In this document: positions 23,903 to 62,187 of the stretch, one piece after another
How positions within the stretch are numbered: the first letter of the stretch is position 1
Layout: every line of letters begins with the position of its first letter
Source: an uncultured Pseudomonadota bacterium
Lineage (GTDB): Bacteria > SAR324 > NAC60-12
Length of the DNA: 64,000 nucleotides
Assembly (NCBI GenBank): GCA_964344035.1
Contig: CAYFLK010000006.1
Location: 26,162 to 90,161, forward strand
Direction of reading: 5' to 3'
Position numbers and translations under genes: made by a program
Notes under the pieces: model-generated
What the model saw: the letters and a program-made list of their open reading frames with translations, nothing else
Databases searched by the model: none
Told to the model about the DNA's origin: nothing

Positions 23903-23953
23903 TTCAAAATCCCAGCAGGCAAACCATCGTTCTGCTACTCAGAACCATCTTGA

Positions 23954-44088: not shown

Positions 44089-45339
44089 ATGCATCAAAAC
44101 GTTGTAACCGCTCCGGAACAAGCCGCATCCGGCCTGATGAAAATCGAATGGGTAAAACGTAACATGCCGATCCTCCGTCAGCTGGAAAAAGAGTTCTGCG
44201 AAGAACAGCCGTTCGCGGGCAAACGGGCGCTGGTTTGTGTTCACCTCGAGGCCAAAACCGCCTTCCTGGCGCTGACGCTCAGGTCTGGAGGTGCGACGGT
44301 CGCTGTCACCGGCAGCAACCCTGAATCGACCAAGGATGATGTGGTCGCAGCCCTTGCGCAAGAAGGGCTGCACGTCTACGCCCGCCGCGGCGCATCCGCG
44401 GAGGAAATGCGCCGGTACATGGGGCTGGCCCTGGACATCGAACCGAACGTGGTGATAGACGACGGCGGAGACATCGCCGAACTGCTGCATGAAACGCGCC
44501 CCGAACTGCTACCGGAAGTTTATGGAGTGTGCGAGGAAACCACCTCCGGAGTGCTGCGCGCCAGGGCCCGGGCGGATGCGGGACTGCTCGCGTTCCCGGT
44601 AATGCTGGTCAACGAGGCGCGTTGCAAGTACCTCTTCGACAACGTGCACGGCACCGGACAATCGGTCTGGGACGGGGTGATGCGCGCGACAAACCTCGTG
44701 CTGGCCGGAAAAACTGTTGCGATTGTCGGTTATGGCTGGTGCGGAAAAGGATGCGCGATGCGTGTGCAGGGACTGGGCGCGCGGGTGATAGTGTGCGAGG
44801 TAGATCCGGTCAAGGCCGCGGATGCGCTGATGAACGGATGCCGGGTGATGCCTCTTCACGATGCATGCGCGCAGGCGGACGTCATCCTAACCGTCACCGG
44901 AATCCGACACACTATTCGCCGGGAACATTTCCGCTTGATGAAAGACCACGTCCTGTTGGCAAACGCAGGACATTTCTGGGACGAAATCGACATCGAATCC
45001 CTGCAAACGCTGGCAGTCGAATCATATGAAATGAGGACCAACGTTCATGGGTTCCGGATGCCCGACGGACGCTGGCTGCATCTGCTCGGAGGCGGAAACA
45101 TCGTCAACATTTCCTGCGCGGACGGACACCCCGCGGAGATCATGGACACCAGTTTCGCACTCCAGGCCTTGTGTGCCAGGCACATCGTACAAAACGCCGG
45201 AAAACTGGAAAACACGGTATACCCTGTCCCGGCGGAAATCGATGAACGCGTCGCCCACCTAAAGCTAGAAGCCGCGGGCGTTTCCATCGACTCCCTGACT
45301 GAGGACCAGCTGCAGTACCGCTCTGGCTGGCAGACATGA
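44089..45339 (+). CDS. ahcY: adenosylhomocysteinase
   Basis: NAD-binding 'VAIVGYGWCGKGCA' and overall SAHH pattern; about 416 aa from MHQNV. Confidence 0.9.
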   Translation: MHQNVVTAPEQAASGLMKIEWVKRNMPILRQLEKEFCEEQPFAGKRALVCVHLEAKTAFLALTLRSGGATVAVTGSNPESTKDDVVAALAQEGLHVYARRGASAEEMRRYMGLALDIEPNVVIDDGGDIAELLHETRPELLPEVYGVCEETTSGVLRARARADAGLLAFPVMLVNEARCKYLFDNVHGTGQSVWDGVMRATNLVLAGKTVAIVGYGWCGKGCAMRVQGLGARVIVCEVDPVKAADALMNGCRVMPLHDACAQADVILTVTGIRHTIRREHFRLMKDHVLLANAGHFWDEIDIESLQTLAVESYEMRTNVHGFRMPDGRWLHLLGGGNIVNISCADGHPAEIMDTSFALQALCARHIVQNAGKLENTVYPVPAEIDERVAHLKLEAAGVSIDSLTEDQLQYRSGWQT

Positions 45340-45431: not shown

Positions 45432-46745
45432 ATGAACCTGCTGATTAAGAATGCGACCATCATCACCGTCAACGCGCGGGACGAAATTTTGGTCGGATCT
45501 GATCTTGCCGTATGCGGAAAGCGGATTGTCGGGGTGGGTAAGGCGCCGGATGATTTTCAGGCGGACCGTGTTATTGACGGGCGCGGACGCTTGGTCATGC
45601 CGGGGCTGATAAACGCGCATACGCATTTGGCGATGACGCTGATGCGAAACTACGCGGACGACCTGCCTTTCTGGTCATGGCTGATGGAAAAGGTGAAACC
45701 CCTGGAAGACCACCTCAGCGCAGAGGACGTCCACCACGGGGCAAAACTGGGGATTGCGGAAATGGTCCGCGGCGGGACTACCTGTTTTCATGACATGTAC
45801 TTCTTCATGGACGAGGTCGCGTGCGCGGTTTCCGAATCCGGCATCCGTGCCTGCCTGAGCGGGGCGCTGTTCGATGTGTCCGGGACTGGCGAGAGGCTTC
45901 TTGGCGATGCGTGTCAACTGCACAGGGAATGGCACGGAAGTGCTGATGGAAGAATCAGCGTGCGCCTTGGACCGCATTCCCCGTACCTCTGCAGTCCGGA
46001 ATACCTGCGCGAAATCAGAGAGGAGGCGCTGCGTCTGGAATGCGGACTTCACATGCATGTTTCCGAAAGCCGCAAGGAAGTCGTGGACAGCATCGAACAG
46101 CACGGGAAGAGCCCCGTCCGGCATCTTGCCGAACTGGAGATGTTCGACTGCCCGACCCTCGCCGCGCATGCGCTGCATGTGGACACGGAAGACCTTGCCC
46201 TGCTTTCCCGAAACAGTGTGCATGTTTCGCATAATCCCACGAGCAACCTCAAACTTGCCAACGGGTTTGCCCCGGTGACGAAAATGATGGAAGCCGGGAT
46301 CAACGTCGCCCTCGGCACTGACAGCGCAGCGAGCAACAACAACCTCAACCTGTTCGAGGAAATGCACCTCGCGGCGCTGCTCGCTAAGGCTGTCGATGAA
46401 GACGCGAGCGCCCTGCCCGCTGAGCAGGCGTTACGGATGGCGACCATCAACGGCGCACGCGCGCTTGGACTGTACGAGGAAATCGGGTCGCTTGAAGTCG
46501 GCAAGAAGGCCGACCTGATCATGCTTGACACGCGAAAACCCCACCTTGTTCCGCTACACAATCCGCTTGCTTTGATTGTGTACTCGGCTCAGGCAGCTGA
46601 TGTGGAAACGGTAATCATCGATGGACGGACGGTCATGGAAAACCGGGAACTGCTCACGCTTGACGAAACCGGCCTGCTTGGTGAAACATCAAGGCAAGCC
46701 GTGGATTTCGTGCGGCGGTCACGAAAACGAGACGGTCTTCGCTGA
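45432..46745 (+). CDS. mtaD: 5'-methylthioadenosine / S-adenosylhomocysteine deaminase (amidohydrolase)
   Basis: 'PGLINAHTHLAMT' metal-binding HxH; 437 aa; canonical MtaD N-terminus. Confidence 0.88.
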   Translation: MNLLIKNATIITVNARDEILVGSDLAVCGKRIVGVGKAPDDFQADRVIDGRGRLVMPGLINAHTHLAMTLMRNYADDLPFWSWLMEKVKPLEDHLSAEDVHHGAKLGIAEMVRGGTTCFHDMYFFMDEVACAVSESGIRACLSGALFDVSGTGERLLGDACQLHREWHGSADGRISVRLGPHSPYLCSPEYLREIREEALRLECGLHMHVSESRKEVVDSIEQHGKSPVRHLAELEMFDCPTLAAHALHVDTEDLALLSRNSVHVSHNPTSNLKLANGFAPVTKMMEAGINVALGTDSAASNNNLNLFEEMHLAALLAKAVDEDASALPAEQALRMATINGARALGLYEEIGSLEVGKKADLIMLDTRKPHLVPLHNPLALIVYSAQAADVETVIIDGRTVMENRELLTLDETGLLGETSRQAVDFVRRSRKRDGLR

Positions 46746-46889: not shown

Positions 46890-47918
46890 ATGTATTTCAT
46901 TAAAATATCGCGCTTTGTTGTCACGGCTTTGCTGGCTCTTCCCCTGCTTCTGTGCACTGCCTCGGCAGTACCGCTGAAGGTTGGCCTGGTGGCGGATTAC
47001 GCGGGATTGAATGACCGCAGTTTCAACCAGATAACTTACGAAGGCCTGGTGCAGGCGGAAAAGGAACTGAGCATCAAGGGCACCGCGGTGGTGGCAAAAA
47101 ACAACACGGATTACCTGCCAAACATGGTGCGCTTCGCACGCGGCGGCTATGACCTGGTGATCGGGGTCGGATTTTTCATGACTGATGCGATCAAGGAAGC
47201 TGCGCAGCAGTATCCGGAAACCAAGTTTCTCCTCATCGATATGCCTATTGACGGGATCCCGAACCTGAGCACCGCCATCTTTGCCTCGCAGGAAATTGCG
47301 TTTCTGGCCGGGGCTTTGTCCGCGCTGGTTGACCAGGACAAGAGCATCGACCTGCCTATACGTCACAACGGGGTCCTCAGCATCGTCGCCGGCGCGCAGA
47401 TTCCACCGGTGGATATCTATATGGCCGGGTATTTTCAGGGCGCGAAGCACATCAACCCTGAGATCAAGGTTCTGTACGGGTACACCGGCACTTTTGGCGA
47501 CCCTGCGGCAGGCAAGCAGTTTGCGCTTTCACAGCACAGCAAGGGTTCCGACATCGTCTATCAGCTCGCGGGAGGAACTGGTCTGGGCGTTATCCAGGCC
47601 TCGAAAGAAAGTAATTTTCTCTCTATCGGCGCGGATTCCGACCAGGCATACCTTGCACCGCAAAACGTGCTGACAAGCACCAGCAAACTCTGCAATGTCG
47701 CGGTGTATTCCACCATTGAACGCATGCTGAAAAACGATTTTCCTTCCGGGGTCGTGCTTTACGACCTGAAAAGCGGAGGGGTCGATATCAGCCCGGTCCA
47801 CAAAGCGGTGCCGGGCTACATTGTTGACCGCGTAGAGCAGATCAAGTCCGAGATCATTTCCGGGAAGATTCAGGTCGGCATTGAAATCCCTGCCTGGGCG
47901 AAGCAGCAGAACCAGTGA
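46890..47918 (+). CDS. BMP-family ABC transporter substrate-binding protein (second copy)
   Basis: Signal peptide; BMP pattern; homologous to 21602-22660. Confidence 0.85.
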   Translation: MYFIKISRFVVTALLALPLLLCTASAVPLKVGLVADYAGLNDRSFNQITYEGLVQAEKELSIKGTAVVAKNNTDYLPNMVRFARGGYDLVIGVGFFMTDAIKEAAQQYPETKFLLIDMPIDGIPNLSTAIFASQEIAFLAGALSALVDQDKSIDLPIRHNGVLSIVAGAQIPPVDIYMAGYFQGAKHINPEIKVLYGYTGTFGDPAAGKQFALSQHSKGSDIVYQLAGGTGLGVIQASKESNFLSIGADSDQAYLAPQNVLTSTSKLCNVAVYSTIERMLKNDFPSGVVLYDLKSGGVDISPVHKAVPGYIVDRVEQIKSEIISGKIQVGIEIPAWAKQQNQ

Positions 47919-49426
47919 ACCTCCCCCGACCGGTCCTGGAAACTTCAGGACTGGTGAAGTCATTCCAGGGGGTACGTGCTCTGGATGGTGTGGATTTCGA
48001 TCTCCTTCCTCGCGAAGTGCATGCCGTTCTTGGAGAAAACGGCGCGGGGAAATCCACGCTGATGAACCTGCTTTACGGGTTGCTGCGCCCCGATACAGGT
48101 AAAATGACACTGTGGGGCAGGCCCTACCACCCATCATCACCCCGGGAAGCCAGCGTTCTCGGGGTGGGGATGGTGCACCAGCATTTCATGCTGATCCCGG
48201 ACCTTAGCGTCGCTGAGAATATCTCCCTCGGAGTTGAATCCGGGAACGCCCTCATACTTGACCTGAAAACCACCGCTCGGCACATCCGCGAACTTTCCGA
48301 AAAATACGGGCTTCCGGTCGATCCATGGGCCAGGGTGGCGGACCTTGGGGTCGGAATGAGGCAGCGGGTGGAAATCATCAAGGCGTTTTACCGGCACGCA
48401 AAACTGCTGATCCTCGATGAACCGACGGCCCTGCTCACTCCACAGGAAAGCCGCGAACTGTTCAAGGGTTTGCAGTCCTTCGTGGAACAGGGAATGCCGG
48501 TGGTGTTGATCAGCCACAAACTGGAGGAAGTACGCGAAATCGCAGAACGCATCACCGTCTTGCGACAGGGTTGTAAAATCGGCACGGTAAGTGCGGAAGA
48601 TACCACCCCGAGGGAACTGGTGCGCATGATGGTCGGGCGGGAAATCTCGACCCGGCTGAAACGCGAAACAGAAGCGGGCAACGGTGAAATCCTGAAAGTT
48701 GAAGGACTTTCGCTGACAGGATTGCAGCCCCTGAGTTTCTCTCTAAAGCGGGGGGAAATCCTGGCCATTGCCGGAGTGGAGGGTAACGGACAGGAACCGC
48801 TTGTCAACGGACTCACCGGAAGCATGCCCGCCCGGGGAAAGGTGTCCCTGGACGGGAAGCCGATAGAAGGGGCATCCGTCCGCCGACGTCGAGAATCAGG
48901 TTTGAACTGGGTGCCGAGCGACCGTCAGCAAGAAGGACTGGTGCTTTCCATGTCCGTTGCTGAAAACCTTGCATTGAGGGAATATTACCAACCGCCGTTT
49001 TCCTACCGGGGATGGCTGAATTTGAAATCGATTGCAAGGATGGCCTTGAACGCGGTGCGCAGTTTCGACGTCCGTCCTCCGCTAGTGGGGGTACCTGTGC
49101 ACTCTCTGTCCGGAGGCAACCAGCAGAAAGTTGTGGCCGCCCGCGAACTGCTGGCTAATCCGAAAGTGCTGCTGGCAAGTCAGCCCACAAGGGGTCTGGA
49201 TATCGGCGCTGAGGAATTTGTACACCGGCAGCTGCTGCGGCTGCGTCATCAGGGATGCGGCATTCTGCTCGTTTCTTCTGATCTGGATGAGATCCTGGAA
49301 CTGTCAGACCGCATCGCGATTCTCCACCGAGGGAAATTAATGGGAGTTGTAGAGCGAAAAAATGCCGTGCGGGAAGAAATCGGGATGCTGATGATGGGCA
49401 GAAAACCTGAAAACCGGGGTTCATGA
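47915..49426 (+). CDS. ABC transporter ATP-binding protein with two ABC domains
   Basis: Walker A 'GENGAGKST' and a second 'GVEGNGQE'; 'LSGGNQQK' signature; 503 aa. Confidence 0.9.
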   Translation: MNLPRPVLETSGLVKSFQGVRALDGVDFDLLPREVHAVLGENGAGKSTLMNLLYGLLRPDTGKMTLWGRPYHPSSPREASVLGVGMVHQHFMLIPDLSVAENISLGVESGNALILDLKTTARHIRELSEKYGLPVDPWARVADLGVGMRQRVEIIKAFYRHAKLLILDEPTALLTPQESRELFKGLQSFVEQGMPVVLISHKLEEVREIAERITVLRQGCKIGTVSAEDTTPRELVRMMVGREISTRLKRETEAGNGEILKVEGLSLTGLQPLSFSLKRGEILAIAGVEGNGQEPLVNGLTGSMPARGKVSLDGKPIEGASVRRRRESGLNWVPSDRQQEGLVLSMSVAENLALREYYQPPFSYRGWLNLKSIARMALNAVRSFDVRPPLVGVPVHSLSGGNQQKVVAARELLANPKVLLASQPTRGLDIGAEEFVHRQLLRLRHQGCGILLVSSDLDEILELSDRIAILHRGKLMGVVERKNAVREEIGMLMMGRKPENRGS

Positions 49427-50451
49427 AACTAGCACGGGAACTGGCATGGGCCGCCGCGGCCATCCTGCTGGCGTTCCTAATCGGCGGCATCCTGACGGCA
49501 TTTTTCGGACATGACCCGGTTGAAGCATATCGTATGCTGCTGCTTGGGGCATTCGGAACCGGGTTTGACGTCGCCACAACTTTTGCCGCGGCGCTCCCGC
49601 TGGTGTTTACCGGACTGTCCGTTGCCGTGGCCTTTCAATGCGGTCTTTTCAATATCGGCGCCTCAGGGCAGTTCTGGCTGGGCGGAATCGCCGCGGCGTG
49701 GATCGGCTACTCGGTCCAGCTGCCGGCGTTTCTCCACTGCCTGCTCGCACTGTCCGGAGCCGCCGCCGCGGGCGCGCTGTGGGCGCTGGCGATCCCGGGA
49801 TTGACTAAAGCCTACCGTGGGGCGAACGAAGTGATCACCACTTTGATGATGACCTACATCGCCGTTGAACTGGGGCATTTTCTGCTGGAAAAAGGTCCGA
49901 TGCAGGGACCGGGATTTTCCCCGGAATCTCCGAAAATCCTTGCATCCGCGGTCCTGCCGAAGCTGGCGCCGGGGACCCAGCTTTCATGGGGAGTATGGTT
50001 CGCGCCACTGGCGGCGATTCTGGTCTGGTTGCTGCTATACCGGACTACGCTCGGATTCACGCTGCGGATGACGGGCGCCAATCTTTCAGCAGCCCGCTAC
50101 GCGGGAGCAAATCCCGCACTGGCGATTATCGCCGCTCTCGGGATCAGCGGGGCGGTCAGCGGGTTTGCCGGAGGCATGCAGATTCTCGGAGTGGACCACC
50201 GGCTATACGACAGTTTTGACCTCGGTTATGGTTTTACCGGGATCGTCGTCGCCCTTCTCGGCAGGAACCACCCATTCGGGGTGTTACCCGCCGCGCTGCT
50301 TTTCGGCGCCCTCGACAACGGCGCTAACTCCATGCAGATTTTCGCCGAAGTCCCCGCGAATCTGGCTGATGTGATCAAAGGAATCATCATCATCTTCATT
50401 GCTGCGGAAGGTCTGTCGCGTTATTTTCGGGTTCCCGGTTTTAGGGATTGA
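49423..50451 (+). CDS. ABC transporter permease (BMP/nucleoside-type)
   Basis: 342-aa polytopic membrane protein; ATGA overlap with the ATPase stop. Confidence 0.85.
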   Translation: MKLARELAWAAAAILLAFLIGGILTAFFGHDPVEAYRMLLLGAFGTGFDVATTFAAALPLVFTGLSVAVAFQCGLFNIGASGQFWLGGIAAAWIGYSVQLPAFLHCLLALSGAAAAGALWALAIPGLTKAYRGANEVITTLMMTYIAVELGHFLLEKGPMQGPGFSPESPKILASAVLPKLAPGTQLSWGVWFAPLAAILVWLLLYRTTLGFTLRMTGANLSAARYAGANPALAIIAALGISGAVSGFAGGMQILGVDHRLYDSFDLGYGFTGIVVALLGRNHPFGVLPAALLFGALDNGANSMQIFAEVPANLADVIKGIIIIFIAAEGLSRYFRVPGFRD

Positions 50452-50695
50452 CCGGCGGCGGATGAAGGGGCGAACACCTGTCTGCGTCGCGAAAGCCTGC
50501 CGCGTGCCACGCACAGGCAGGCGGCAGGCAGGCACAAGTCTGCTCCTCCGGGCTTTTCAATATTTCCTTAACGGCCTTTCCGGAATCATGATATATTCGT
50601 TTGATGCCCATGCCTTGAACACTTTGCGGCTTGAATAGTAAAAAAACCAAAAAACATCTGCGAAAAGTACAAAAAAACCTGACAGGGATGAAGGA

Positions 50696-51565
50696 ATGAC
50701 CAGGAACAACACGGACAAGATGGGGACCATCATCGGGCTTATTTCGGGGGCCGTCTTCATCCTTTTCGGTATCCTTTGGCCGATTGAATACTCCAACCTG
50801 GCGCTGATCCTTGGAGACGGGTATGAATCGGACAACCCACAACTGCAGATGATGTTGAAAGTCGCCCGCTTCTTTGACGTCAAATCCGTGTTTATCGTCA
50901 TCGGGGGGACGTTTTCGGCAACCTTCATCGCCTTTCCCTACAAAAAAACCCTGCGCAGTTTCCGCAGCATGGGCAAGGTCCTCTCCGCGGATCATTCCGA
51001 AATCGAGGCGGAAGACGTCTATGAACAGGCGCGAACGATAGGTGAAAAGCGTTTTCATGGCCGGCGTTTGACCAATGAGGACCTGAACAGCCTCACCAAC
51101 CCCTTCATGCGCCGCTGGATTGAAGGGCTGATCGTGCGGGAACAGGTCCCGGAAGAAATGCTCAATGAAATCATCCGCTCGGAAATCGAGATGTATGAAC
51201 ACCGCGCGGATGAAGAGATTGAAATAATAGAGTTCATGAGCACAGCCGCCCCGGCGTTCGGGATGATGGGGACAATCGTCGGGCTGGTGCTGATGCTGGC
51301 GGAAACAGGCAGCATCCGCGCCGTGATGCAGTCAATGTCGATTGCGATGCTCACCACGCTGTATGGAGTGATAATCGCTAATTTGATCCTGCAGCCGCTG
51401 GCCTCAAAGAGAAAACAACTGAAGGAATCGAACAGGGTGCTGATGGAAATGATCCGCGAAAGCGTCCAGTGCATTGCGCGACGCGACGCGCCTTACGCGA
51501 TGCTGCAGGAACTGTCACTGTTCCTGCCCGCAAAGCGGCTCGATTTCGACCAACAATACCAATAA
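50696..51565 (+). CDS. MotA/PomA-like proton-channel stator protein
   Basis: Four transmembrane segments with a cytoplasmic acidic loop; 'AAPAFGMMGTIVGLV' matches the MotA TM3 'LPAFGIVAAVMG'. Confidence 0.8.
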   Translation: MTRNNTDKMGTIIGLISGAVFILFGILWPIEYSNLALILGDGYESDNPQLQMMLKVARFFDVKSVFIVIGGTFSATFIAFPYKKTLRSFRSMGKVLSADHSEIEAEDVYEQARTIGEKRFHGRRLTNEDLNSLTNPFMRRWIEGLIVREQVPEEMLNEIIRSEIEMYEHRADEEIEIIEFMSTAAPAFGMMGTIVGLVLMLAETGSIRAVMQSMSIAMLTTLYGVIIANLILQPLASKRKQLKESNRVLMEMIRESVQCIARRDAPYAMLQELSLFLPAKRLDFDQQYQ

Positions 51566-51574
51566 TTCCGGCTG

Positions 51575-53143
51575 ATGCTGGGGCTGAAAAAAAAGAAGGC
51601 CAGGGAAGTACGCTGGTTGATCACGTTTGCCGATCTGATCACCCTGCTGTTCTGTTTTTTTGTTTACCTGTCGCTGTTCAGCAAACCAAGCGTCAGCCTG
51701 CAAACAAGGTTCAGGATCACCGAACAGGCCCTGCTGGTTTTGAAGGAAGCCCTGCCAGCATCCGTGATCTCCGGAATGCAGTCGCTGAGCGGCCTTATCT
51801 TTAACGGAGAGCAGGTTTTTTATGAGGGAGTTGAATCCTGGATCGGCAAGGACGACTCGGCAAAATTCCGCAGCCAAATCGTGCTGGAAAGCATCGCGGA
51901 TGATGTGGTGGATGAATCCGGGCGGGTGGCATGGGTGGAAGTCATCCTCAGCGAACCGGTGCAGGAAGACCTGAAGGTCCCCCTGTTTTTCAGCGGGATG
52001 GCGCGCAGGGGTCCGGATAACCAGGAATTGTGCACTGATGAGGGGTTGACCCGCGCTGACGAAAGCACACAGGGGTTCGATTATTTGCTTTCCCGGGAAT
52101 CGATTTCCATCGAAAGCGGTGAGACAACCGGTAGGATACCGATCTGCATCATTGACGATGAACTTTACGAGGGGACCGAATCCATCCGCGTCCAGATCGG
52201 AAACGTCCGCGGCAACGTCGAGCGCGGAACCATCATTTCGAAAAACGTACTCATTCATGACAATGAACCGCCGCCGAGGGCGAGTTTCAATATTGATCGC
52301 CGCGATATTTTCAAAGGGATCGTCAGCCTCACCGTCCAACTCGACCGCGTAAGCGGCACCACCACCGAGATCCCTGTTTCATTCAAAGGTACCGCATACG
52401 AGGGCGTTGATTTCCGCCTGATCGACCCCCCGGTGATCAGGATATTTCCCTACACGGAAAAAGGCTCGATCCAGCTTGAGATCATGCAGGATGAAGTGCC
52501 TCTCTACGCAACGCGCACCTTGCTTGTCGAAATGAACGAAAAGGTCATGCGCAACGTGCGGAGCGGGGGAGTTTCCCGCCAGGTGAACTCCATAATCGGC
52601 GCGCTAGAGATGAAAGACTGCAGCGGCATCCACCGTTTTTTAAAGGAAAACCACGGGGAATTTGCCGCGTTTGAACTGAATGCGAGCAAATCCCGCTGCA
52701 TCCTCATTCTGCCTTCCGAGTTCCTTTTCAAAAGCGGTTCCGCCGACCTCAAACCGGAAAACCTGCGGCGTTTGAAAAAATTCCTCGGAGAAATCCGGGA
52801 CCGTTACGAACTGGAAGGAGACGCGATCCGGGTGGAAGGTCACACCGATGACGTGCCGCTAGGGAAGCGCGCGGAATACCGGAACAACTGGGAACTTTCA
52901 GTCGCGCGGGCCACAAACATCGGGGTGTTCATGATGGAAAAAATCGGCTATGTTCCCGAACTCCTATCCATTTCCGGATATGCTGACACGCGCCCGCGTG
53001 TTTCGTACCGGGACTCGGAAGGACGCCGGAAAGACCGCAAGATGTTGCGGGAAGCACGCAGTGCGAACAGGCGCGTGGAGATTATTTTCACCCGACCCCC
53101 TCAGAAGGAGCGAACCCGCCGTTTTTTCCCTGACACGGAATGA
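51575..53143 (+). CDS. MotB-like protein with two Calx-beta-like periplasmic domains and C-terminal OmpA/MotB peptidoglycan-binding domain
   Basis: 'WLITFADLITLLFCFF' MotB plug/transmembrane segment with conserved Asp; 'IIDDELYEGTESIRVQIGNVRGNVERG' Calx-beta motif; OmpA-like C-terminus 'WELSVARATNI...ANRRVEI'. Confidence 0.75.
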   Translation: MLGLKKKKAREVRWLITFADLITLLFCFFVYLSLFSKPSVSLQTRFRITEQALLVLKEALPASVISGMQSLSGLIFNGEQVFYEGVESWIGKDDSAKFRSQIVLESIADDVVDESGRVAWVEVILSEPVQEDLKVPLFFSGMARRGPDNQELCTDEGLTRADESTQGFDYLLSRESISIESGETTGRIPICIIDDELYEGTESIRVQIGNVRGNVERGTIISKNVLIHDNEPPPRASFNIDRRDIFKGIVSLTVQLDRVSGTTTEIPVSFKGTAYEGVDFRLIDPPVIRIFPYTEKGSIQLEIMQDEVPLYATRTLLVEMNEKVMRNVRSGGVSRQVNSIIGALEMKDCSGIHRFLKENHGEFAAFELNASKSRCILILPSEFLFKSGSADLKPENLRRLKKFLGEIRDRYELEGDAIRVEGHTDDVPLGKRAEYRNNWELSVARATNIGVFMMEKIGYVPELLSISGYADTRPRVSYRDSEGRRKDRKMLREARSANRRVEIIFTRPPQKERTRRFFPDTE

Positions 53144-54561
53144 TGGATTTCGGATTTCGGATTTCGGATTTCGGATCAAAAGCAGGGATCAGAAATCAGG
53201 AAACATTGAGAGAAATCAGAAACCGGAACCCAGGAACAAGGAATAAGCCCGAACGCCCGCGGAGAGCGAGCTTTTTTGTTCTGTTCGCGCTTGCAGTGCA
53301 TGCGGCCGCGTTTGATGCTGGAAACACTATCCGCGCTCAGACACGCGAAGCAAAAAACACCCCGCCCCCAATAACCGATCTACCCCTGCGGCAGCAGCCT
53401 CCTCCTCCACGCCCGGGAGTGCTCCAGGAAATACTCGTGGTGCGCACTTCCCCCGGCATCGTCAGGCATGCCGAAGGAGTGCTGAGGTTTCAGGTCAGCG
53501 CTTTCAGCCCGATCATGGTAGTCAAAGTAAACGGGTTCGCGCAGATGATCCGTCCGGGAGTGGATTTCATGGAGTACGAGGTTCCCTACCAGCTTCAACC
53601 GGGAAAAAACCGGTTCCTCGTTTTTGTGCAGACTCGTGAAGGTGAAGACGAGCGGGAAATCCTGCTTACATACCAGCCTCCACCGCTGGGAAAGCCCCGG
53701 GAACCGCTGCCACTGGATTTGCTCGTAATCCTCGGACAGACCGAAAGCGACAACATGCTTCAGTCACCGGATGGTTCCTCCCGCGTAAATGCGTCAAGGA
53801 ACGACTTGCTGCTTTCGCTGGGATACTTCCTCAAGCTGGACGAGCAGGCGCGATTTACGCTGAAAGGTCTTTTCAAATTCGACCGACAGAAAAACCGCGC
53901 CCTGGCCTCGGAGGAAACCCTGATGCGTCAACTGAGCGTGGAATACAGGCGCCCGGATTTATGGGAGATGGAGATGAATTTCGGGCTGGGACAAACCGTA
54001 CTCAGCGACAAAAGCACCGCTGCGTCACCGGCGCGGGAAGGAGAGTTTGTCAAGAACAGCGAAAGCGTCTATATTTTCGCGTCCGCGGTACGCGGGCTGG
54101 GGAAAACGAAGGAACTCAATGCCCGGGTTCAACTTGATATGCAGAACAAAATCGCCTCCAATAATGAAGACGGCATGCTGAACCTGGTATCCGTGGGAGG
54201 CAAATGGCTCGTCTACGCCTTTAAACTGAGCGGAGAAATTCAGTCCCGCGGAACAGGGTTTGAGGATACAAGCAAGGATTACCAGACAGCCGTGCTAAGC
54301 CTGAGGGTGACCTATCCGTGGAACCCGTGGATCTTCGATCTTCGTTTCAGGAACAGCGATCAGAAATACCGGGAACCCGATCCTGGTTCACGGATCACCC
54401 TGCATAACAAAAAGGATCATTTTTCGGTGCAAAGCAAATATGCCTATTCGAAAAACATGATCGCAGATTTTTCCTTGAACAGCATCAAACAAGGGTCAAA
54501 CGATACGACCAGGGCATACCGTGAAAATCAGATGGTCTTCCAGTTTATCTGGAGTTATTGA
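53140..54561 (+). CDS. predicted outer-membrane beta-barrel protein (start uncertain)
   Basis: Signal-like 'RRASFFVLFALAVHAAAF' about 45 codons after the annotated start; alternating beta-strand pattern; aromatic C-terminus '...FIWSY'. Confidence 0.55.
   Translation: MMDFGFRISDFGSKAGIRNQETLREIRNRNPGTRNKPERPRRASFFVLFALAVHAAAFDAGNTIRAQTREAKNTPPPITDLPLRQQPPPPRPGVLQEILVVRTSPGIVRHAEGVLRFQVSAFSPIMVVKVNGFAQMIRPGVDFMEYEVPYQLQPGKNRFLVFVQTREGEDEREILLTYQPPPLGKPREPLPLDLLVILGQTESDNMLQSPDGSSRVNASRNDLLLSLGYFLKLDEQARFTLKGLFKFDRQKNRALASEETLMRQLSVEYRRPDLWEMEMNFGLGQTVLSDKSTAASPAREGEFVKNSESVYIFASAVRGLGKTKELNARVQLDMQNKIASNNEDGMLNLVSVGGKWLVYAFKLSGEIQSRGTGFEDTSKDYQTAVLSLRVTYPWNPWIFDLRFRNSDQKYREPDPGSRITLHNKKDHFSVQSKYAYSKNMIADFSLNSIKQGSNDTTRAYRENQMVFQFIWSY
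53145..53172 (+). repeat. heptanucleotide tandem repeat (GGATTTC)x4 at the 5' end of the downstream ORF
   Basis: Perfect 7-nt repeat read directly; followed by AGAAATCAG-rich low-complexity sequence. Confidence 0.85.
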
Positions 54562-56749: not shown

Positions 56750-57445
56750 TTAAAAAGTATATCCGCCCAGCAGGCTGAAAGAATATCCGCTGCCCATCAG
56801 CAACGTTGCTCCCGCTGAAAACGAGCTGAAGCGGGTGAACAACGGCATCCCTATGCGGAACCCGGAGCTTTGCCCCCAGCGAACCTGCGGAATGAATTCA
56901 GCAATGTCTTCTAATTGAAAACGATATCCGCCGAGGATGTAGAGATTTGATATGAAAGTCTGAAAATCCTGGTTTTTGGTCGACAATGCAGTGGGGGTAG
57001 CCATGATAAGGTCTTCCCCGCCGCCCCAGACAAGGTTGTCTTCAGCATAGTGAGTGTAGGACAGCGAAAGCGCTTTTGTCCCGGAACTCAAAATCCCCAG
57101 CGGTCCGTATTCCAGTGTAAATGTGTCACCCTCCAACCAATCAAACCAACCCCCATTAACTTCCGCACGGGGTATTTCCTTGATTTCCCGCTTTGATTCC
57201 GAGAGGTCGACCAGGGATTTCCCATCACAGATCCAGTCGAGATATTTTTTGGCAGCTTCCGTTGAAACCTGGTCCCTGATGGTTTCCACATCCCCGCGGC
57301 TGCAGCCGATTTTTGCTTTCTCGGCATGAACTACGGAAATGAAGGTCATTGAGTACAGCATGCATAACAGTAAAACCCTGCTAATCCTGCGTAATCGTGG
57401 ATGCCAAACAATTGCCGCAATTTTATTCCTACCTGTTTCCATCAC
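56750..57445 (-). CDS. hypothetical secreted / outer-membrane-like protein
   Basis: Signal peptide; C-terminus '...LLGGYTF' ends with an aromatic residue. Confidence 0.45.
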   Translation of the reverse strand: MMETGRNKIAAIVWHPRLRRISRVLLLCMLYSMTFISVVHAEKAKIGCSRGDVETIRDQVSTEAAKKYLDWICDGKSLVDLSESKREIKEIPRAEVNGGWFDWLEGDTFTLEYGPLGILSSGTKALSLSYTHYAEDNLVWGGGEDLIMATPTALSTKNQDFQTFISNLYILGGYRFQLEDIAEFIPQVRWGQSSGFRIGMPLFTRFSSFSAGATLLMGSGYSFSLLGGYTF

Positions 57446-57732: not shown

Positions 57733-58392
57733 TCACTTGGCTGGATCCGCGACTTTCAAGGCTGCTTTGAGGAGGGGGAGGATGCAGCCGCTGTACTCGA
57801 CCCTGCCATCAGGCATAGTGGTGTTGCAGAGTAATGAACCGGTCATTTCCGCTTTGTCGAGGTTGGCGCCTTTCAGGGTTGCCGATTTCAGGTCCGCACC
57901 CTGCAGGTTGGCGCCGCGCAGGTTGCTGATGCCGAAATCCGCCACCGACAAATTGGCGTCTTCAAGATCGGCGCCCTGCAAGTCCGCTCCAAGCAGGACC
58001 GCTCCACGCAAATCGGCGGATTTGAGGTTTGCGACTCCCAGTTCCGCGACAGACATGTTCGCCCCTCCCAGCATCGCGCCTTTAAGGTCCGCCCCACGCA
58101 GGTCGGTCCCGCGCATGTTCGCGCCTTCCAGGTTTGCGCCGCGCAGGTTTGCTCCCTGCAGGTTCGCCCCGCGAAGGTTTGCCCCCTGCAGTTCAGCGGA
58201 AGCGAGATCGGCCCCGCTGAGGTTTACGTTCGGAAGATTCACCTGCCTAAGGTCTGACTTGGCCAGATCGCACTTGACGCATTCAAGCTTGCTCTGCAAC
58301 CGTTCCAGGTCTCCGGGCTCCACGGCTACTGCCCACGAACCCCATGCCAGTGTGAACGGGACCCACACCAGCAACAAAAACTGTTTCCTCAT
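57733..58392 (-). CDS. secreted pentapeptide-repeat protein
   Basis: About 30 consecutive A(D/N)LxG pentapeptides ('ANLRGANLQGANLRGANLEGANMRG...'); signal peptide. Confidence 0.85.
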   Translation of the reverse strand: MRKQFLLLVWVPFTLAWGSWAVAVEPGDLERLQSKLECVKCDLAKSDLRQVNLPNVNLSGADLASAELQGANLRGANLQGANLRGANLEGANMRGTDLRGADLKGAMLGGANMSVAELGVANLKSADLRGAVLLGADLQGADLEDANLSVADFGISNLRGANLQGADLKSATLKGANLDKAEMTGSLLCNTTMPDGRVEYSGCILPLLKAALKVADPAK

Positions 58393-58590
58393 CGTTAGTC
58401 TGTTTGAATGAAATAGCACAAATTTTACCACTTTATCGTTTTTACCGATAAAGTCCAGAAAGATGTAAGGAGTTGGATGAATTGATACTCAAATAATGTG
58501 TTTAAATCAGTGCGCTTTTTTTAATTGTGCCAAAATGTGATAGTTTTGGTTTTTGGAAAAGACAGATACCCAAAACCGGATATTCCGTCG

Positions 58591-59376
58591 ATGAACCAGC
58601 CTGCATCGCATAAAACCATCCACGAACCCGCCTGCTGGCTTGAGAAACATTATCACCAGGTCGATGCAGCACTCCGGGCGGTAGCCAGCCGCAAGGGGTT
58701 AAACCGGGAAGAAAGCGTGGAACTTACCTCGGATGTACACCTCCACCTGGTGGAACGTGATTATGCCGTGCCGCGCGCGTGGGACGGGAGCGCCGCCATC
58801 CAGACCTACCTCTATTCGGTAATCACCCGCAAGCTGGTGGATTTCATCCGTGGTAGAAAAGGCCGCCGGCGGCCCTCGCGCCGGGCGGAACGTTTAGGAG
58901 AAGTCGCGGTTCTTTTTGAAGAACTGTTCCTGCGTCAGGGCAAAAGCTTCGATGAGGCATGCCTGATCCTCACCGTCAATCATGGGTTCAAGGTGGATCG
59001 TGATGAACTGGCCCGCCTCGCCGTTCGTCTGCGGATGCCCGTCGGTCCGTCTCGTTCAGAGATTGATCCTGAAAACCTGGATAGCGGCAGGAATCCTGAA
59101 GACGAACTGGACCGCGCACGGGAACGCTCAATGCGGGAACGGGTGCTGTGCGTGCTCGAGCAAAGCGGAAGCGGATTAAACGATCAGGAAAGCCTGCTCA
59201 TCAAGCTTAAGTTTGAAGAGAACCTCCCCCTTTCCAAAGTCGCGCGGATGCTTGGACTTAGCCGCGCGCAGGCGGAACACAGGCTAATGAGCATCCTCAA
59301 CACACTCAGGCAGCGCATACTGGAATCGGGCGTAAGTGAAGAAGATCTTCGGGATTGGCTAAATAAAGATTTATGA
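58591..59376 (+). CDS. sigma-70 family (ECF-like) RNA polymerase sigma factor
   Basis: Region 2-like 'YLYSVITRKLVDFIRGR' and region 4 helix-turn-helix 'LPLSKVARMLGLSRAQAEHRL'. Confidence 0.7.
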   Translation: MNQPASHKTIHEPACWLEKHYHQVDAALRAVASRKGLNREESVELTSDVHLHLVERDYAVPRAWDGSAAIQTYLYSVITRKLVDFIRGRKGRRRPSRRAERLGEVAVLFEELFLRQGKSFDEACLILTVNHGFKVDRDELARLAVRLRMPVGPSRSEIDPENLDSGRNPEDELDRARERSMRERVLCVLEQSGSGLNDQESLLIKLKFEENLPLSKVARMLGLSRAQAEHRLMSILNTLRQRILESGVSEEDLRDWLNKDL

Positions 59377-60482
59377 AAAAAGAAAAAAATTTTATGAAAA
59401 ATGAGAATTTGTCCGTCTCATTAGATGAACGCCTGGGGCAGCTGCTGTCCCGGACCTTGAACGAGGAGACGGAAATGAATCCCGAAGACTGTCCCACCCC
59501 GCTGACGATGGCGGCTTTCATCGAAGGCGGTCTGGATGAGGAACCAAGACGTCAGGTGACGACTCATGTATCACGCTGCGGCCTTTGCCGTGAGTGGATC
59601 GGGGAATTGCACCTGGTTGGCGAAGAGCTTCCTGATCTCCTCGGGGCTTTCTCAGCCGGGGATGAGGAATCCGGCCCTCGTCAACACGTGGGTGAACAGG
59701 GAGCCGACCCGCATAAATCATCAGGCGGTTTGAGACTGGCGTTCAGTCGCAAGGACTCAAAGCGCCGGAAACCCGGCATTTCTGGTCTTACAATTCCGCA
59801 ATGGGCGGGACTGGCCGCATCGCTGCTGCTGGTGATCGGCGTTGCCTGGTTCATGTCCCGCCAGCCGGGATTTCATACCTCCCCCCTGGCACGCGAATCC
59901 TTGAACGCCCGCGTGATCGCGCAGCGGCTGCCTGTATCAGCTTTTGATGCCGGCGGGGACTTCCCCCGGGAATTCCTCGGTTTTTCTGCAACGGGACACC
60001 CGCGCAGTCTTCATTTTCAAAGCGGACGGTGGCTTGCGTCCCTTGCCGCGGCAAATCCTCCAGTGGATGCCGATCAACATCTTCACTTTGCCGCTCAGCT
60101 TGAATCCGCTCGTTTTGCGGACGTCAGCAGTGAACTGTTCGATGAACTGCCCCCGGCGTTGGCCGGTAAACCGTCTGAGAAAGCCCTGGCCGGATGGATT
60201 TCCCGTTTTGAAGAACAGCTCAGCCCGGAATCCTGGCCCTACGTCCTGCTCGGGGAATGGTGCTTCGGCGCGGAGCGGGCGGCCCAAACCGGAAACCTGA
60301 ATTACTTCCGTCCCGAGGAAATCCGTGCTTTCACGGAAATGTTCAGGGAACGCGTGGAACTGCCGGGCCTGCTGAGGTCCCTGGAACGCCTGAAAAGCCT
60401 GGCTCAGGCTGCTCCGGAGGTTCCCGGCCGTTTTGAAAAAATCACCGGCGAAATCGAAAATCTGAACCTGCTGTTTGAATAA
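59373..60482 (+). CDS. putative anti-sigma factor (zinc-finger, single transmembrane segment)
   Basis: 'HVSRCGLCREW' H..C..C ZAS-like motif; transmembrane segment 'WAGLAASLLLVIGVAWF'; ATGA overlap with the sigma factor stop. Confidence 0.55.
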   Translation: MKKEKNFMKNENLSVSLDERLGQLLSRTLNEETEMNPEDCPTPLTMAAFIEGGLDEEPRRQVTTHVSRCGLCREWIGELHLVGEELPDLLGAFSAGDEESGPRQHVGEQGADPHKSSGGLRLAFSRKDSKRRKPGISGLTIPQWAGLAASLLLVIGVAWFMSRQPGFHTSPLARESLNARVIAQRLPVSAFDAGGDFPREFLGFSATGHPRSLHFQSGRWLASLAAANPPVDADQHLHFAAQLESARFADVSSELFDELPPALAGKPSEKALAGWISRFEEQLSPESWPYVLLGEWCFGAERAAQTGNLNYFRPEEIRAFTEMFRERVELPGLLRSLERLKSLAQAAPEVPGRFEKITGEIENLNLLFE

Positions 60483-60615
60483 TCAGGGTGCGCATAACAG
60501 GCTGAAATGACGACTTGTATAAATCCCCTCCGACGGAAGGGGGATGCGAAGCAGACTGGTTGGGTTTCTTCCCCTGCGAGGAGATAAAATTCAAAATGTA
60601 CACACGAAAACCTAC

Positions 60616-62187
60616 ATGTCAAACATCCTCAGGCTGCTGATTCTGCTCCTCGGCTGCGCCCTCTATTTGGCGGGCAAGGCAGACGCGCAGGAAAGCCCGA
60701 AGGCCAAAGCCGCATGGTGGCTGGAGCAGCACGGCGCGCTGACGGAAGACCTGGAACCGCGCATCGCTTTGGTCCGCGGGGTCTGGGAACGTGTCGAAGC
60801 CGCCTCGGAACGCAGCCCAAAACGCCTGCCCCGGCTGGTACTGCTCCGTTCTCACCATGCGCCGATGGCGCATGCGCTTCCGGACGGCAGCGTCCTTCTC
60901 AACCGCGCGGCGATTCGGCTCTGTTATGACGGTGTGAAGCGTGAACTGGGCGACGCGCGCATGGCGTTTCTGCTCGGGCATGAACTGGCGCACCTCGCCA
61001 AAGACGATTTCTGGGCGGCGGAAGCGTTTTCACGGGTGGGCGCCGTCCCTGAAATCGCGGAAGCGCGCGTCCATCTTGAACAACTGCTGCGGCGCTCTGA
61101 ACCTGACGGCAAAAACCAGGCCGCCCGTCTCAGGGAGCTTCAGGCAGACGCCCACGGGCTGATTGCCATGACCGCCGCGGGTTACAATCCGAAGCGTGTG
61201 CTCGATGTCGACTCCACCTTCTTCCAGCTCTGGTCCGCCCGCGTCATCGAGCTTCAGGGTCAATCCCCGGCTCCAGCTCAATACCCCGCGGACGCGGAGC
61301 GCGCCGCGCTGCTGCGTTCCCAGCTGTCGGCGGTGCGGCGAGAACTGCTGGTCTTCGACGCGGGAACAAAACTGCAGCAGCTCGGGAGATATGATGACGC
61401 GCGGGTGCTGCTCGAACACTTCCGCGGCCGCTTTCCCGGACGCGAGATATTCAACAACCTCGGTTTAAGCGAATACCGGCTCGCCATGCGCGAACTTGCC
61501 GGCTACGACGCCCGCTGGGCTGCACGTTATTTTACCGCGCTGGTCGCGGACCTGGAAACCATGGGAACACTGACCCGCGGGCGCACGGGCGGTCCTGCTC
61601 GCGGACCCGGAAAACGCTGCGTCGCGCTCCTGGGGTTTCAAACCCATTTTCGGCGTGCGCTTAAGTATTTCGAAAAAGCGTCGCGGATGGACCCTGAATA
61701 CCTGCCCGCGCGCGTAAACCTCTCTTCGGCGCGTCTGACCGCCGGGGATTACGCTGGCGCGATGAGCGCCGCTGACCAGGTGTTGCGCGTCAACCCCGAA
61801 CAGCGCGAAGCGATGAACAACAAGGCCGTTGCCCTGCATGCGTTCGGACGCGAAATGGGGATGGACACCACCGACCGCGCCCTGAGCGTACTGGAAACCA
61901 TACTGCGTAAACACCCTGATTACGCGGCAGCGGCCTACAACCGCGCGGTCCTGCTGACCGAAAGGCAGCGACCCGGAAGCGCCGGGCAGGCGTGGGAGCG
62001 GCTGCTGCGATACCGCCTGCCGCCGTTGTACCGCGCGCGGGTCTACATGAACCTGGGACGTACCGAACCCCCCCCCGGTTCGTGCCCGAAAGGCGAGTGT
62101 TTCTCCCCCCATGTCCCTGGGCGCGTTGACCCGCCGGGGGAGGGAAAGGTTTGCCGGGATGACCTGCGTGCGGGTGCGCTCCGGTGA
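60616..62187 (+). CDS. M48 family zinc metalloprotease with TPR repeats (BepA-like), secreted
   Basis: Signal peptide; 'LLGHELAHLAKDD' HExxH; C-terminal TPR-like repeats. Confidence 0.75.
   Translation: MSNILRLLILLLGCALYLAGKADAQESPKAKAAWWLEQHGALTEDLEPRIALVRGVWERVEAASERSPKRLPRLVLLRSHHAPMAHALPDGSVLLNRAAIRLCYDGVKRELGDARMAFLLGHELAHLAKDDFWAAEAFSRVGAVPEIAEARVHLEQLLRRSEPDGKNQAARLRELQADAHGLIAMTAAGYNPKRVLDVDSTFFQLWSARVIELQGQSPAPAQYPADAERAALLRSQLSAVRRELLVFDAGTKLQQLGRYDDARVLLEHFRGRFPGREIFNNLGLSEYRLAMRELAGYDARWAARYFTALVADLETMGTLTRGRTGGPARGPGKRCVALLGFQTHFRRALKYFEKASRMDPEYLPARVNLSSARLTAGDYAGAMSAADQVLRVNPEQREAMNNKAVALHAFGREMGMDTTDRALSVLETILRKHPDYAAAAYNRAVLLTERQRPGSAGQAWERLLRYRLPPLYRARVYMNLGRTEPPPGSCPKGECFSPHVPGRVDPPGEGKVCRDDLRAGALR

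Follow-up and report, generated by a model that had tools for sequence, protein, structure and literature searches.

A MotA/MotB-type stator with a Calx-beta stalk in marine SAR324 bacteria, and its probable place in an envelope-spanning motor with a FliG-like partner

We describe a three-gene locus at positions 50696-54561 (+) of a 64,000-nucleotide stretch of DNA from a marine SAR324 bacterium; the whole stretch is called the window throughout. Its three adjacent open reading frames, of 289, 522 and 473 amino acids (aa), encode a homolog of the stator A subunit MotA, a homolog of the stator B subunit MotB, and a predicted outer-membrane barrel that we call gene 3. An original prediction, made from the letters of the sequence alone, had drawn attention to this trio, and the observation of a three-gene stator and barrel locus is confirmed. 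The stator belongs among the known ion-driven 5:2 motors, which power flagella, Ton and Tol transport, gliding and the type IX secretion system (T9SS), and Zorya defence. We infer that the trio provides the stator and the outer-membrane part of a SAR324-wide, non-flagellar, envelope-spanning motor in which MotAB is combined with a FliG-like protein, and we assign this reading a probability of roughly 0.6. SAR324 is among the more abundant bacterial groups of the deep ocean; the window is assigned to this phylum because those of its protein homologs that bear a source name are labelled 'SAR324 cluster bacterium'.

The A subunit has four transmembrane (TM) segments, at approximately residues 10-30, 62-82, 180-203 and 213-236 as read from the hydrophobic segments of the sequence, with a large cytoplasmic loop between TM2 and TM3, and it matches the Pfam family MotA_ExbB (Table 1). 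Its top NCBIfam models are MotP, PomA and MotA (123, 116 and 99 bits), all below their equivalog cut-offs of 394, 341 and 340 bits; the MotP match has an E-value of 1e-35, as against 0.025 for TolQ and 1.3e-4 for ExbB. The best matches among PDB sequences are C. sporogenes MotA, Aquifex-type MotA, Vibrio PomA and B. subtilis MotA (E 4.5e-23 to 1e-19), in alignments that cover residues 58-281, that is, TM2, the entire cytoplasmic domain, and the sequence through to TM4. Residues 82-180 align without a break with the cytoplasmic domains of C. sporogenes MotA, Aquifex-type MotA and PomA (E 4.5e-23 to 4e-21). The prolines of TM3 and TM4 are conserved, as is the glycine-rich character of TM3: P186, A187, G189, G192, G196 and P234 are invariant across the MotA clade described below, PomA and C. 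sporogenes MotA. Judged on its sequence by the criteria of Puente-Lelievre et al. 2025 (PMC12505986), whose flagellar stator class is named FIT, the protein counts as a flagellar-type (FIT-like) A subunit, as distinct from the Tol/Exb/Agl type. That survey of MotAB diversity found stators with a flagellar-type cytoplasmic interface only in flagellar systems (PMC12505986).

The clade to which this MotA belongs is rare, with 11 of 1.84 billion cluster representatives at E<=1e-30; beyond those 11 there is a continuum of ordinary proteins of MotA/PomA length. In a rough neighbour-joining tree, rooted on SAR324 ExbB, the SAR324 MotA groups with those of loci L095, L010, L009, L006, L135 and L136 and with the representatives in 24 of 30 bootstraps, and the clade leaves out both PomA and C. 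sporogenes MotA. A homolog search with the window protein returned only SAR324 orthologs of at least 64% identity, and is uninformative on canonical MotA paralogs in SAR324. Most members of the clade (L095 is the exception) carry a periplasmic insert of 30-70 aa between TM1 and TM2, corresponding to residues 29-60 of the window protein; in several it starts with a WP(D/I/A)xxSN motif, and it is absent from PomA and C. sporogenes MotA. This insert could be a contact site for the unusual periplasmic region of MotB.

The gene for the B subunit begins 9 nucleotides (nt) past motA. At 522 aa, against some 250-320 aa and a short linker in canonical MotB proteins, its product has a non-canonical architecture. 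Pfam places MotB_plug (PF13677, E 2.2e-10) at residues 8-37 and OmpA (PF00691, E 1.2e-12) at residues 384-488; the insert of about 300 residues between the TM helix and the OmpA domain folds, in an AF2 model with a mean pLDDT of 83.8, into one alpha/beta domain and two beta-sandwiches. Residues T17-F18-A19-D20 are invariant in an alignment of 30 MotB homologs (alignment A2). About 60 full-length SAR324 homologs share 50-63% identity, and most MotB homologs in the databases have no precomputed Calx-beta match. Neither the L006 homolog nor the short MotBs of L009 and L010 have the alpha/beta domain. As to the plug, the Pfam match spans positions 5-41 of the 58 in the model, and the AF2 structure shows a beta-hairpin and then helices after the TM helix; because the match covers only the transmembrane part of the Pfam model, the plug is putative.

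The two beta-sandwiches of the insert are predicted to form a tandem Calx-beta fold. One of them, and only one, passes the Pfam threshold for Calx-beta (PF03160, residues 153-229, 31.6 bits against a gathering score of 27). When the MotB model is compared with PDB by Foldseek, the top matches are the tandem CBD12 domains of NCX1 and CALX (E 4e-15 to 1e-10 over 260-330 aligned columns), followed by the C-terminal domains of PomB, MotS and H. pylori MotB (target-normalised TM-score of about 0.8). In sequence, the middle region matches NCX1 CBD1 by phmmer (E 1.6e-4), with DY...IIDDELYEGTE paired with DY...IIDDDIFEEDK. We took as reference the CBD1 Ca2+ ligands E385, D421, D446, D447, E451, E454, D498 and D500. 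Their counterparts in domain 1 form an acidic Ca-type site of E114, D169, D194, D195, E199, E202, D229 and E231, where D169 to E202 are mapped by the phmmer alignment, and E114 and D229/E231 by reading. Thus domain 1 keeps all the acidic ligands of the NCX1 CBD1 site, and it is predicted to bind Ca2+. Five of these residues (E114, D169, D195, E199 and D229) are invariant across the family in alignment A2; domain 2, as read from the same alignment, lacks the acidic DDxxxE motif.

Gene 3 has no Pfam match. Its product is predicted to be a 14-stranded, CymA/OmpG-like outer-membrane barrel, and shows the features by which such proteins are recognised, namely a signal peptide, a closed antiparallel barrel and a C-terminal aromatic residue. 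Among its 79 database homologs, those that are named come only from SAR324 or Deltaproteobacteria, and some match Porin_4. The first 40 or so codons of the open reading frame are not conserved. They lie 5' of the signal peptide and contain a heptamer tandem repeat, which sits directly past the motB stop and before the probable start of gene 3. In relatives, gene 3 begins with the signal peptide 10-20 nt past motB and there is no such repeat insert; the true start is therefore more likely TTG 53206. Since seven is not divisible by three, translation from ATG 53140/53143 would change frame with any gain or loss of a copy. A structured intercistronic RNA at the repeat was considered and dropped, its fold being no better than those of shuffled sequences (z -0.6).

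The original prediction had seen in these genes an ion-driven MotA/MotB-type stator pair, a MotB made non-canonical by two Calx-beta domains, and a co-operonic outer-membrane barrel with an aromatic C-terminus, and all three claims hold: the four TM segments, PF01618, Asp20 and the OmpA domain bear out the pair; the PF03160 score, the AF2 model and the CBD12 matches bear out the stalk, with the acidic Ca-type site intact in its first domain; and the predicted barrel is syntenic with motAB in relatives. Where it had named a conserved plug and transmembrane Asp, the aspartate stands (Asp20 is invariant in all 30 sequences) and the plug is putative. An overlap of the motB stop with the gene 3 start, which it had also reported, is doubtful given the likely start at TTG 53206.

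The trio is part of a wider pattern among relatives. It is syntenic in every related locus examined, that is, the window, L003-5, L008, L088, L089, L094 and 11 metagenome loci that reach gene 3, so that it is dispersed in none of them; clusters of trio-type proteins hold more than 1,000 metagenomic member sequences. In every other SAR324 lineage examined (L003-5, L088, L089/90, L091 and L094) the trio lies inside a larger conserved cluster, in the order FliG-like protein (541-548 aa), MotA, MotB, barrel, FecR-domain protein (about 300-355 aa) and lipoprotein (about 560-640 aa). The complete six-gene order is seen in L003-5, L089 and L094, and L088 is the same as far as its contig reaches. In L003 the FliG-like gene and motA overlap, whereas in other lineages up to about 80 nt separate them, and at several loci the lipoprotein gene is followed by one for a protein of more than 2,000 aa, in whose L003 copy a LamG domain is found. 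L094 has no outer flanking genes in common with the other loci; because its flanks differ wholly from theirs, the six genes are taken to move together. When metagenomes were scanned with the 541-aa FliG-like family as seed, 38 loci were found, and MotA stands directly 3' of the FliG-like gene in all 28 that have sequence downstream; the full order through the lipoprotein holds in 8 of the 8 loci that are sufficiently long. Scans of genome contigs were less productive: a profile-free scan with a single MotB protein found nothing, and a scan with alignment A2 returned mostly generic MotB/OmpA proteins, L008 being the only true family member and L009 and L010 being outgroups.

Just 5' of the FliG-like gene, most SAR324 relatives also carry a divergently transcribed block encoding an OmpA-domain protein, ExbB, ExbD, LpxB and TldD/PmbA (L003 3587-7102, L088 3377-6737, L089 3523-6873, L091 4268-7628), which is missing from the window. 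Because of the position of this ExbB-ExbD block, a second, Tol/Exb-type motor adjoins the cluster. At L092 (logan ERR873969_42709) a MotA 82% identical to that of the window is followed by the OmpA-ExbB-ExbD-LpxB block in inverted orientation, with no MotB there; either a genuine rearrangement or a chimeric assembly would account for it.

The first gene of the cluster encodes the putative rotor partner. In SAR324 this 541-aa protein is a bitopic protein of the inner membrane: a signal peptide precedes a periplasmic domain of roughly 200 aa, which a single transmembrane helix and an acidic linker join to a helical region in the cytoplasm. A profile built from three of the SAR324 sequences has only two significant matches in PDB, 1lkv and 3ajc, both of them the middle and C-terminal parts of T. 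maritima FliG (E 4.1e-5, residues 294-447, including a 'RRMFVFEDI'-type segment). Other members of the MotA clade provide bridges. At L135 a 529-aa, one-transmembrane protein directly 5' of MotA has FliG_M on record and is found by the SAR324-only profile at E 1.3e-13; at L095 a 658-aa homolog, also directly 5' of MotA, is found at E 4e-33, beside a MotA 45% identical to ours and a 536-aa MotB with a Calx-beta match of 32.6 bits, above the cut-off. The 573-aa transmembrane protein of L009 matches FliG_M (53 bits) and FliG_C (51.5 bits), both above threshold, as well as TIGR00207 (E 2e-18); its gene comes four genes past MotA, after genes for a short MotB, an outer-membrane protein and TPR proteins. 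The pairing with a FliG-like protein recurs at L006 and L136, where giant CarboxypepD_reg or repeat proteins are encoded nearby. The 541-aa partner of L003 and the 606-aa partner of L006 have no direct BLAST similarity, and are linked through profiles and the bridges of L009, L095 and L135. On these matches, a membrane-anchored, putatively FliG-like protein is the constant companion of this MotA clade. No FliF/YscJ or FliG_N domain was detected in the partner, and no annotated locus has a Pfam match to FliF, FliM or FliN; that the periplasmic domain of the partner may hold a FliF-like ring-building motif is an impression only. The Calx-beta insert of MotB is shared by the SAR324, L095, L006 and L136 branches (by reading, in the last two), whereas the MotBs of L009 and L010, at 216-218 aa, lack it.

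The operons of the outgroups carry a different outer-membrane protein, with an N-terminal CQEC-motif domain and a small barrel ending in Phe (loci L009 10589-16141, L010 2247-4129, L136 4748-6028, L006 921-1979), which several TPR or giant repeat proteins accompany. The proteins L009_393, L010_380 and L006_352 resemble one another, and to the eye L136_426 is of the same kind. Between gene 3 and these outgroup proteins hhalign finds no detectable homology (probability 0.2%), so that MotAB with an outer-membrane protein is a recurring theme and not a conserved gene.

The FliG-like first gene changes what the locus would be expected to do. The original prediction had pictured a three-gene envelope machine with an outer-membrane partner; the synteny of the trio agrees with that picture, but elsewhere in SAR324 the trio is the middle of a six-gene cluster, and the likely mechanism therefore shifts to a stator acting with a FliG-like rotor or adaptor and with periplasmic and outer-membrane parts. 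We envisage that ion flow through a MotA5B2-type complex would turn the MotA ring, whose cytoplasmic domain would push the FliG-like domain of the membrane-anchored partner in place of a flagellar C-ring. The periplasmic domain of the partner would then relay the movement to periplasmic, outer-membrane or surface components. Meanwhile the long MotB stalk, probably stiffened by Ca2+, would fix the stator to peptidoglycan at a set distance, and may contact the N-terminal domain of the barrel, which we assume to face the periplasm. The window would hold the MotA-MotB-barrel module alone, with its own upstream region and beside an ABC transporter. In its lineage the partner genes must either lie elsewhere in the genome or be dispensable to the module.

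Several results weigh against this account. The window is the sole SAR324 lineage seen without the FliG-like, FecR-domain and lipoprotein genes: in its 64 kb neither tblastn nor a profile search finds a homolog of any of them, and the FliG-like profiles A3/A4 reach at best E 0.02-0.19 against the six-frame translation, which is no match. Consequently the rotor partner is hypothetical for the window locus itself. The FliG similarity of the SAR324 partner is weak, coming from one profile-to-PDB match and from transitive links, and in Pfam the 541-aa protein has only sub-threshold matches (MgtE_N E 3.7e-4, FliG_M E 3.4e-3). With PomA R88/E96 and E. coli R90/E98 as reference for the charged residues that contact FliG, the columns of PomA E96/E97 hold E128/D129 in the window MotA, but in that of R88 there is F120, R119 standing one position earlier; members of the clade differ in the pattern, and the match is partial only. 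All the structures are predicted, and the N-terminal domain of the barrel is of low confidence. Finally, flagellar genes have been reported in SAR324 (PMC9031357), including 23 of the 32 KEGG flagellar-assembly genes in one genome (PMC4749706).

This last point bears upon the main alternative, one that we consider unlikely, in which the pair is the flagellar stator of SAR324, or one of several, equipped with a long periplasmic MotB stalk and an outer-membrane partner. Extra periplasmic scaffolds of a comparable kind occur in the motors of Vibrio (MotX/MotY/FlgT) and Campylobacter (PflA/PflB/FlgP). Such a stator would agree with the flagellar MotP, PomA and MotA as the best relatives of the A subunit, with PomB, MotS and MotB as the closest to the C-terminal domain of the B subunit, with the labels 'flagellar motor protein MotB' or 'PomA' that homologs bear in their sources, with the FliG-like neighbour in related genomes, and with the many flagellar genes just mentioned, by which a flagellar regulon, the finding that the original prediction had said would make this the ordinary stator, may be present in the phylum. 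Yet flagellar genes in the phylum do not alone make the pair an ordinary stator, because no flagellar gene adjoins it in the loci examined. The prediction had reported no flagellar, Tol or Ton genes near the trio, and we likewise find none among the window's open reading frames scanned against Pfam, a scan that covers all but about 1.6 kb (roughly 37.2-38.8 kb), nor among the genes called in the part of the window that lies beyond about 42.5 kb; among the called genes of all annotated loci, the FliG-like partner gives the only flagellar Pfam match. The conserved neighbours are instead a TM-anchored FliG-like protein, a barrel, a FecR-domain protein, a lipoprotein and giant surface-type proteins. 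The NCBIfam scores of MotA are one third of the equivalog cut-offs, and its clade stands apart from PomA and C. sporogenes MotA in the rough tree and has the 30-70 aa insert. Some SAR324 bins, moreover, yielded only 'flagellar motor proteins' (PMC4782131; the supplementary file of that paper has no MotA, MotB or FliG entries). A different possibility, and a very improbable one, is that a rearrangement displaced part of the six-gene cluster and left it in the window as a remnant, non-functional or in the course of loss. The missing partner genes would fit, as would the odd, repeat-containing 5' region of gene 3 and the confinement of homology to the three genes: nucleotide similarity with the sister lineage L088 starts about 12 nt inside motA and ends at the gene 3 stop, so that the region 5' of motA is specific to the window lineage. 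Against decay, the same contig was recovered in several samples, and the identities with L088 (MotA 82%, MotB 63%, barrel 50%) compare with 81%, 74% and 55% for the ortholog pair L003/L089. All three open reading frames are full-length, without frameshifts or stops, and retain D20, the Ca-site acids, the invariant prolines and glycines of MotA and the C-terminal aromatic residue; because all three proteins keep these family-invariant residues, the window copy looks functional.

If the window trio is taken by itself, without a FliG-like rotor, it might be an energiser in the manner of Tol-Pal or Ton, in which the proton-motive force would do work through the Calx-beta stalk on the barrel, and would gate transport through it or tether and maintain the outer membrane. 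There is precedent, since Ton and Tol are themselves inner-membrane 5:2 motors acting on outer-membrane proteins, and the window does hold exactly these three genes, under an upstream region that is theirs alone and without partner genes anywhere in its 64 kb. The barrel is similar to CymA/OmpG, which are monomeric substrate channels, and its extra N-terminal domain could engage MotB. We nevertheless regard such an energiser as improbable: its MotB would be anchored to peptidoglycan by the OmpA domain and is not a reach-out protein like TonB or TolA, the large flagellar-type cytoplasmic domain of the A subunit would have no role, and the FliG-like gene is tightly linked in all other lineages (28 of 28 loci). 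Membership of the Tol/Ton family proper is rejected on the family scores given above for TolQ and ExbB and on the MotB/OmpA type of the B subunit. To a Zorya-like anti-phage system, or another MotAB-type defence module, we attach hardly any weight. PADLOC ZorB models do match the OmpA part of MotB (E 2e-18), a match explained by the OmpA domain common to ZorB and MotB; ZorA models, however, give only E 0.018-0.021, the 289-aa MotA has no long ZorA-type tail, there are no ZorC/D-like genes, and the neighbours are an ABC transporter and NnrS, with no defence-island context. The original prediction had set the system apart from Zorya and Tol/Exb. The ZorA, TolQ and ExbB E-values (0.018, 0.025 and 1e-4) support that separation, with the amendment that the best relatives of MotA are the flagellar MotA, PomA and MotP. 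Taken together, family models, architecture and gene context place the stator in the MotA/MotB superfamily, and outside the canonical flagellar stators, Zorya and Tol/Ton.

Returning to the FliG-like/MotAB motor, a broader and more tentative proposal, which we hold at somewhat less than even odds, is that a rotor-stator machine made of flagellar-motor parts, yet independent of the flagellum, exists in SAR324 and in a few other uncultured lineages of this rare MotA clade. FIT-type MotAB would turn or push a membrane-anchored FliG-like protein, whose periplasmic domain would power a process at the cell surface together with the Calx-beta MotB, the barrel, the FecR-domain protein and the lipoprotein. 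That process might, for example, be the movement or export of the giant LamG or CarboxypepD_reg proteins encoded nearby. Either such a machine would have arisen by exaptation of the torque interface of the flagellum, or it would be related to the pre-flagellar ancestor of that interface. We give a fair chance to the cluster as a whole being a new type of rotary envelope machine. It is set apart by the operon of the related loci, in which a flagellar-type MotA is constantly joined to a Calx-beta MotB, a barrel and a membrane-anchored FliG-like protein, with no flagellar genes near. If the motor is as we propose, an uncultured phylum would have yielded a new kind of envelope machine, the interaction of MotA with FliG could be studied in a second and simpler setting, and the stator would be the first with a likely Ca-binding module on the peptidoglycan tether. 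In the literature we found no paper that contains both 'MotB' and 'Calx-beta', the library searched being incomplete, and no description of a non-flagellar FliG-MotAB system; the same incompleteness makes an earlier description of the latter possible.

The coordinates of the trio and of the elements within it are collected in Table 1.

Table 1. Features of the stator and barrel locus, in window coordinates
Feature	Position	Strand	Basis
Sigma-70-like promoter candidate, TTAACG-18-TATATT, with TG	50568..50597	+	Consensus scan, weak pattern match only
motA-like gene, 289 aa	50696..51565	+	PF01618, E 3.7e-18
motB-like gene, 522 aa	51575..53143	+	Pfam MotB_plug, Calx-beta, OmpA; AF2 pLDDT 83.8
MotB transmembrane helix, residues 14-35, with invariant Asp20 (codon 51632-51634)	51614..51679	+	Alignment A2; AF2 helix 7-35
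MotB small periplasmic alpha/beta domain, residues 39-105	51689..51889	+	AF2 secondary structure, pLDDT 84-90
MotB Calx-beta domain 1, residues ~108-232	51896..52270	+	PF03160, 31.6 bits; phmmer NCX1 CBD1; Foldseek CBD12
MotB Calx-beta-like domain 2, residues ~234-342	52274..52600	+	AF2 strands 235-341; Foldseek tandem CBD12
MotB OmpA/MotB-type peptidoglycan-binding domain, residues 350-506	52622..53092	+	PF00691, E 1.2e-12; Foldseek
Gene 3, predicted outer-membrane protein, 473-aa open reading frame; probable start TTG 53206, giving 451 aa	53140..54561	+	
Perfect heptamer tandem repeat (GGATTTC) x 4.6	53145..53176	+	TRF score 64
Gene 3 signal peptide, residues 43-57 of the open reading frame	53266-53310	+	
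Gene 3 predicted N-terminal beta-sandwich, residues ~96-180	53425-53679	+	
Gene 3 predicted 14-strand barrel, residues 190-473	53707-54558	+	

The promoter candidate lies in a 245-bp gap between an ABC permease gene and motA. On the 5' side of the trio the window encodes an AdoHcyase, an amidohydrolase and a BMP-type ABC transporter; on the 3' side there is a small minus-strand open reading frame and then NnrS. The transporter belongs to one of two separate sets of BMP-family (PnrA-like) ABC transporter genes in the window, at 21602-25021 (-) and 46890-50451 (+). The second set adjoins the genes for adenosylhomocysteinase (44023-45339) and the amidohydrolase (45432-46745), a neighbourhood that suggests nucleoside or S-adenosylhomocysteine salvage.

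Further along the window, a 231-aa protein (56750-57445, -) with an N-terminal hydrophobic signal and the C-terminus ...LLGGYTF resembles a small outer-membrane protein and has no Pfam match; beside it are a 111-aa open reading frame and a pentapeptide-repeat protein (57733-58431, -). A sigma-factor-like and an anti-sigma-like open reading frame (58525-59376 and 59373-60482, +) overlap at stop and start, neither of them found in Pfam at E<=1e-6; the second has a CxxC motif and one transmembrane segment, and 3' of the two lies the gene for a TPR-containing M48 peptidase (60544-62187). Toward the other end of the window, two neighbouring, paralogous DUF3015 genes (8715-9281 and 9218-9778, -) have secreted products of about 187 aa each. 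An 847-aa fusion protein (14493-17036, -) joins a two-transmembrane K+ channel pore to TrkA-N-like domains and Sel1 repeats, and its C-terminal region has no Pfam match. Mobile DNA is hinted at, some 30 kb from the trio, by a fragment of a DUF772 transposase (18804-19364, +) and by a gene for a PIN-domain toxin (19965-20384, -).

Compared with known systems, the locus is nearest in its parts to the flagellar stators MotAB, PomAB and MotPS. It shares with them adjacent A and B genes, a four-TM A subunit with a large cytoplasmic domain between TM2 and TM3 and prolines in TM3 and TM4, and a B subunit with one TM helix, an invariant Asp and a C-terminal OmpA-like peptidoglycan-binding domain. It differs in the roughly 300 extra periplasmic residues of MotB, the TM1-TM2 insert of MotA and scores below the equivalog cut-offs, as well as in having no adjoining flagellar genes, a co-operonic barrel and, in relatives, a membrane-anchored FliG-like partner. 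The stalk resembles the CBD1-CBD2 region of NCX in its tandem beta-sandwiches (Foldseek E 4e-15) and in the DDxxxExxE motif and terminal D-x-E of domain 1; the MotB domains, however, are periplasmic and set within the MotB linker, the second lacks the acidic site, and the binding of Ca2+ is predicted only.

With Tol-Pal and Ton the locus has in common an inner-membrane, ion-driven motor of the 5:2 type linked to an outer-membrane protein and to peptidoglycan binding, but its A subunit is MotA-type, its B subunit is MotB/OmpA-type rather than TolR/ExbD, and no TolA/TonB-like protein is present. Nor is the barrel that of a TonB-dependent transporter, having 14 strands as against 22. From CymA and OmpG, which are 14-stranded monomeric channels, it differs in sequence (7-8% identity), in an extra N-terminal beta-sandwich of about 85 residues, and in sharing an operon with a stator. 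Surface proteins are moved by the AglRQS-Glt system of Myxococcus, by GldLM/T9SS in Bacteroidota and by SiiAB with the giant adhesin SiiE in Salmonella. These too are motors driven by the proton-motive force and encoded with barrels and periplasmic proteins, and the giant LamG or CarboxypepD_reg proteins of the relatives are of a comparable surface type; yet they use no FliG-like partner and no Calx-beta MotB, and nothing similar in sequence to Glt or Gld components came up save an insignificant GltJ match (E 0.0095).

The partner, in turn, has FliG_M- and FliG_C-like regions in the related loci. Canonical FliG, by contrast, is soluble, binds FliF through FliG_N, and forms a C-ring with FliM and FliN, whereas the partner has a signal peptide, a periplasmic domain and a TM helix. 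The nearest described analogue is the FliF-FliG fusion of the Chlamydiaceae (bioRxiv 10.1101/023564), which likewise joins a periplasmic domain, a TM helix and a cytoplasmic FliG-like domain in a non-flagellar setting; the chlamydial protein, however, is discussed in connection with a type III secretion system, while the SAR324 partner has a single TM helix and is paired with MotAB.

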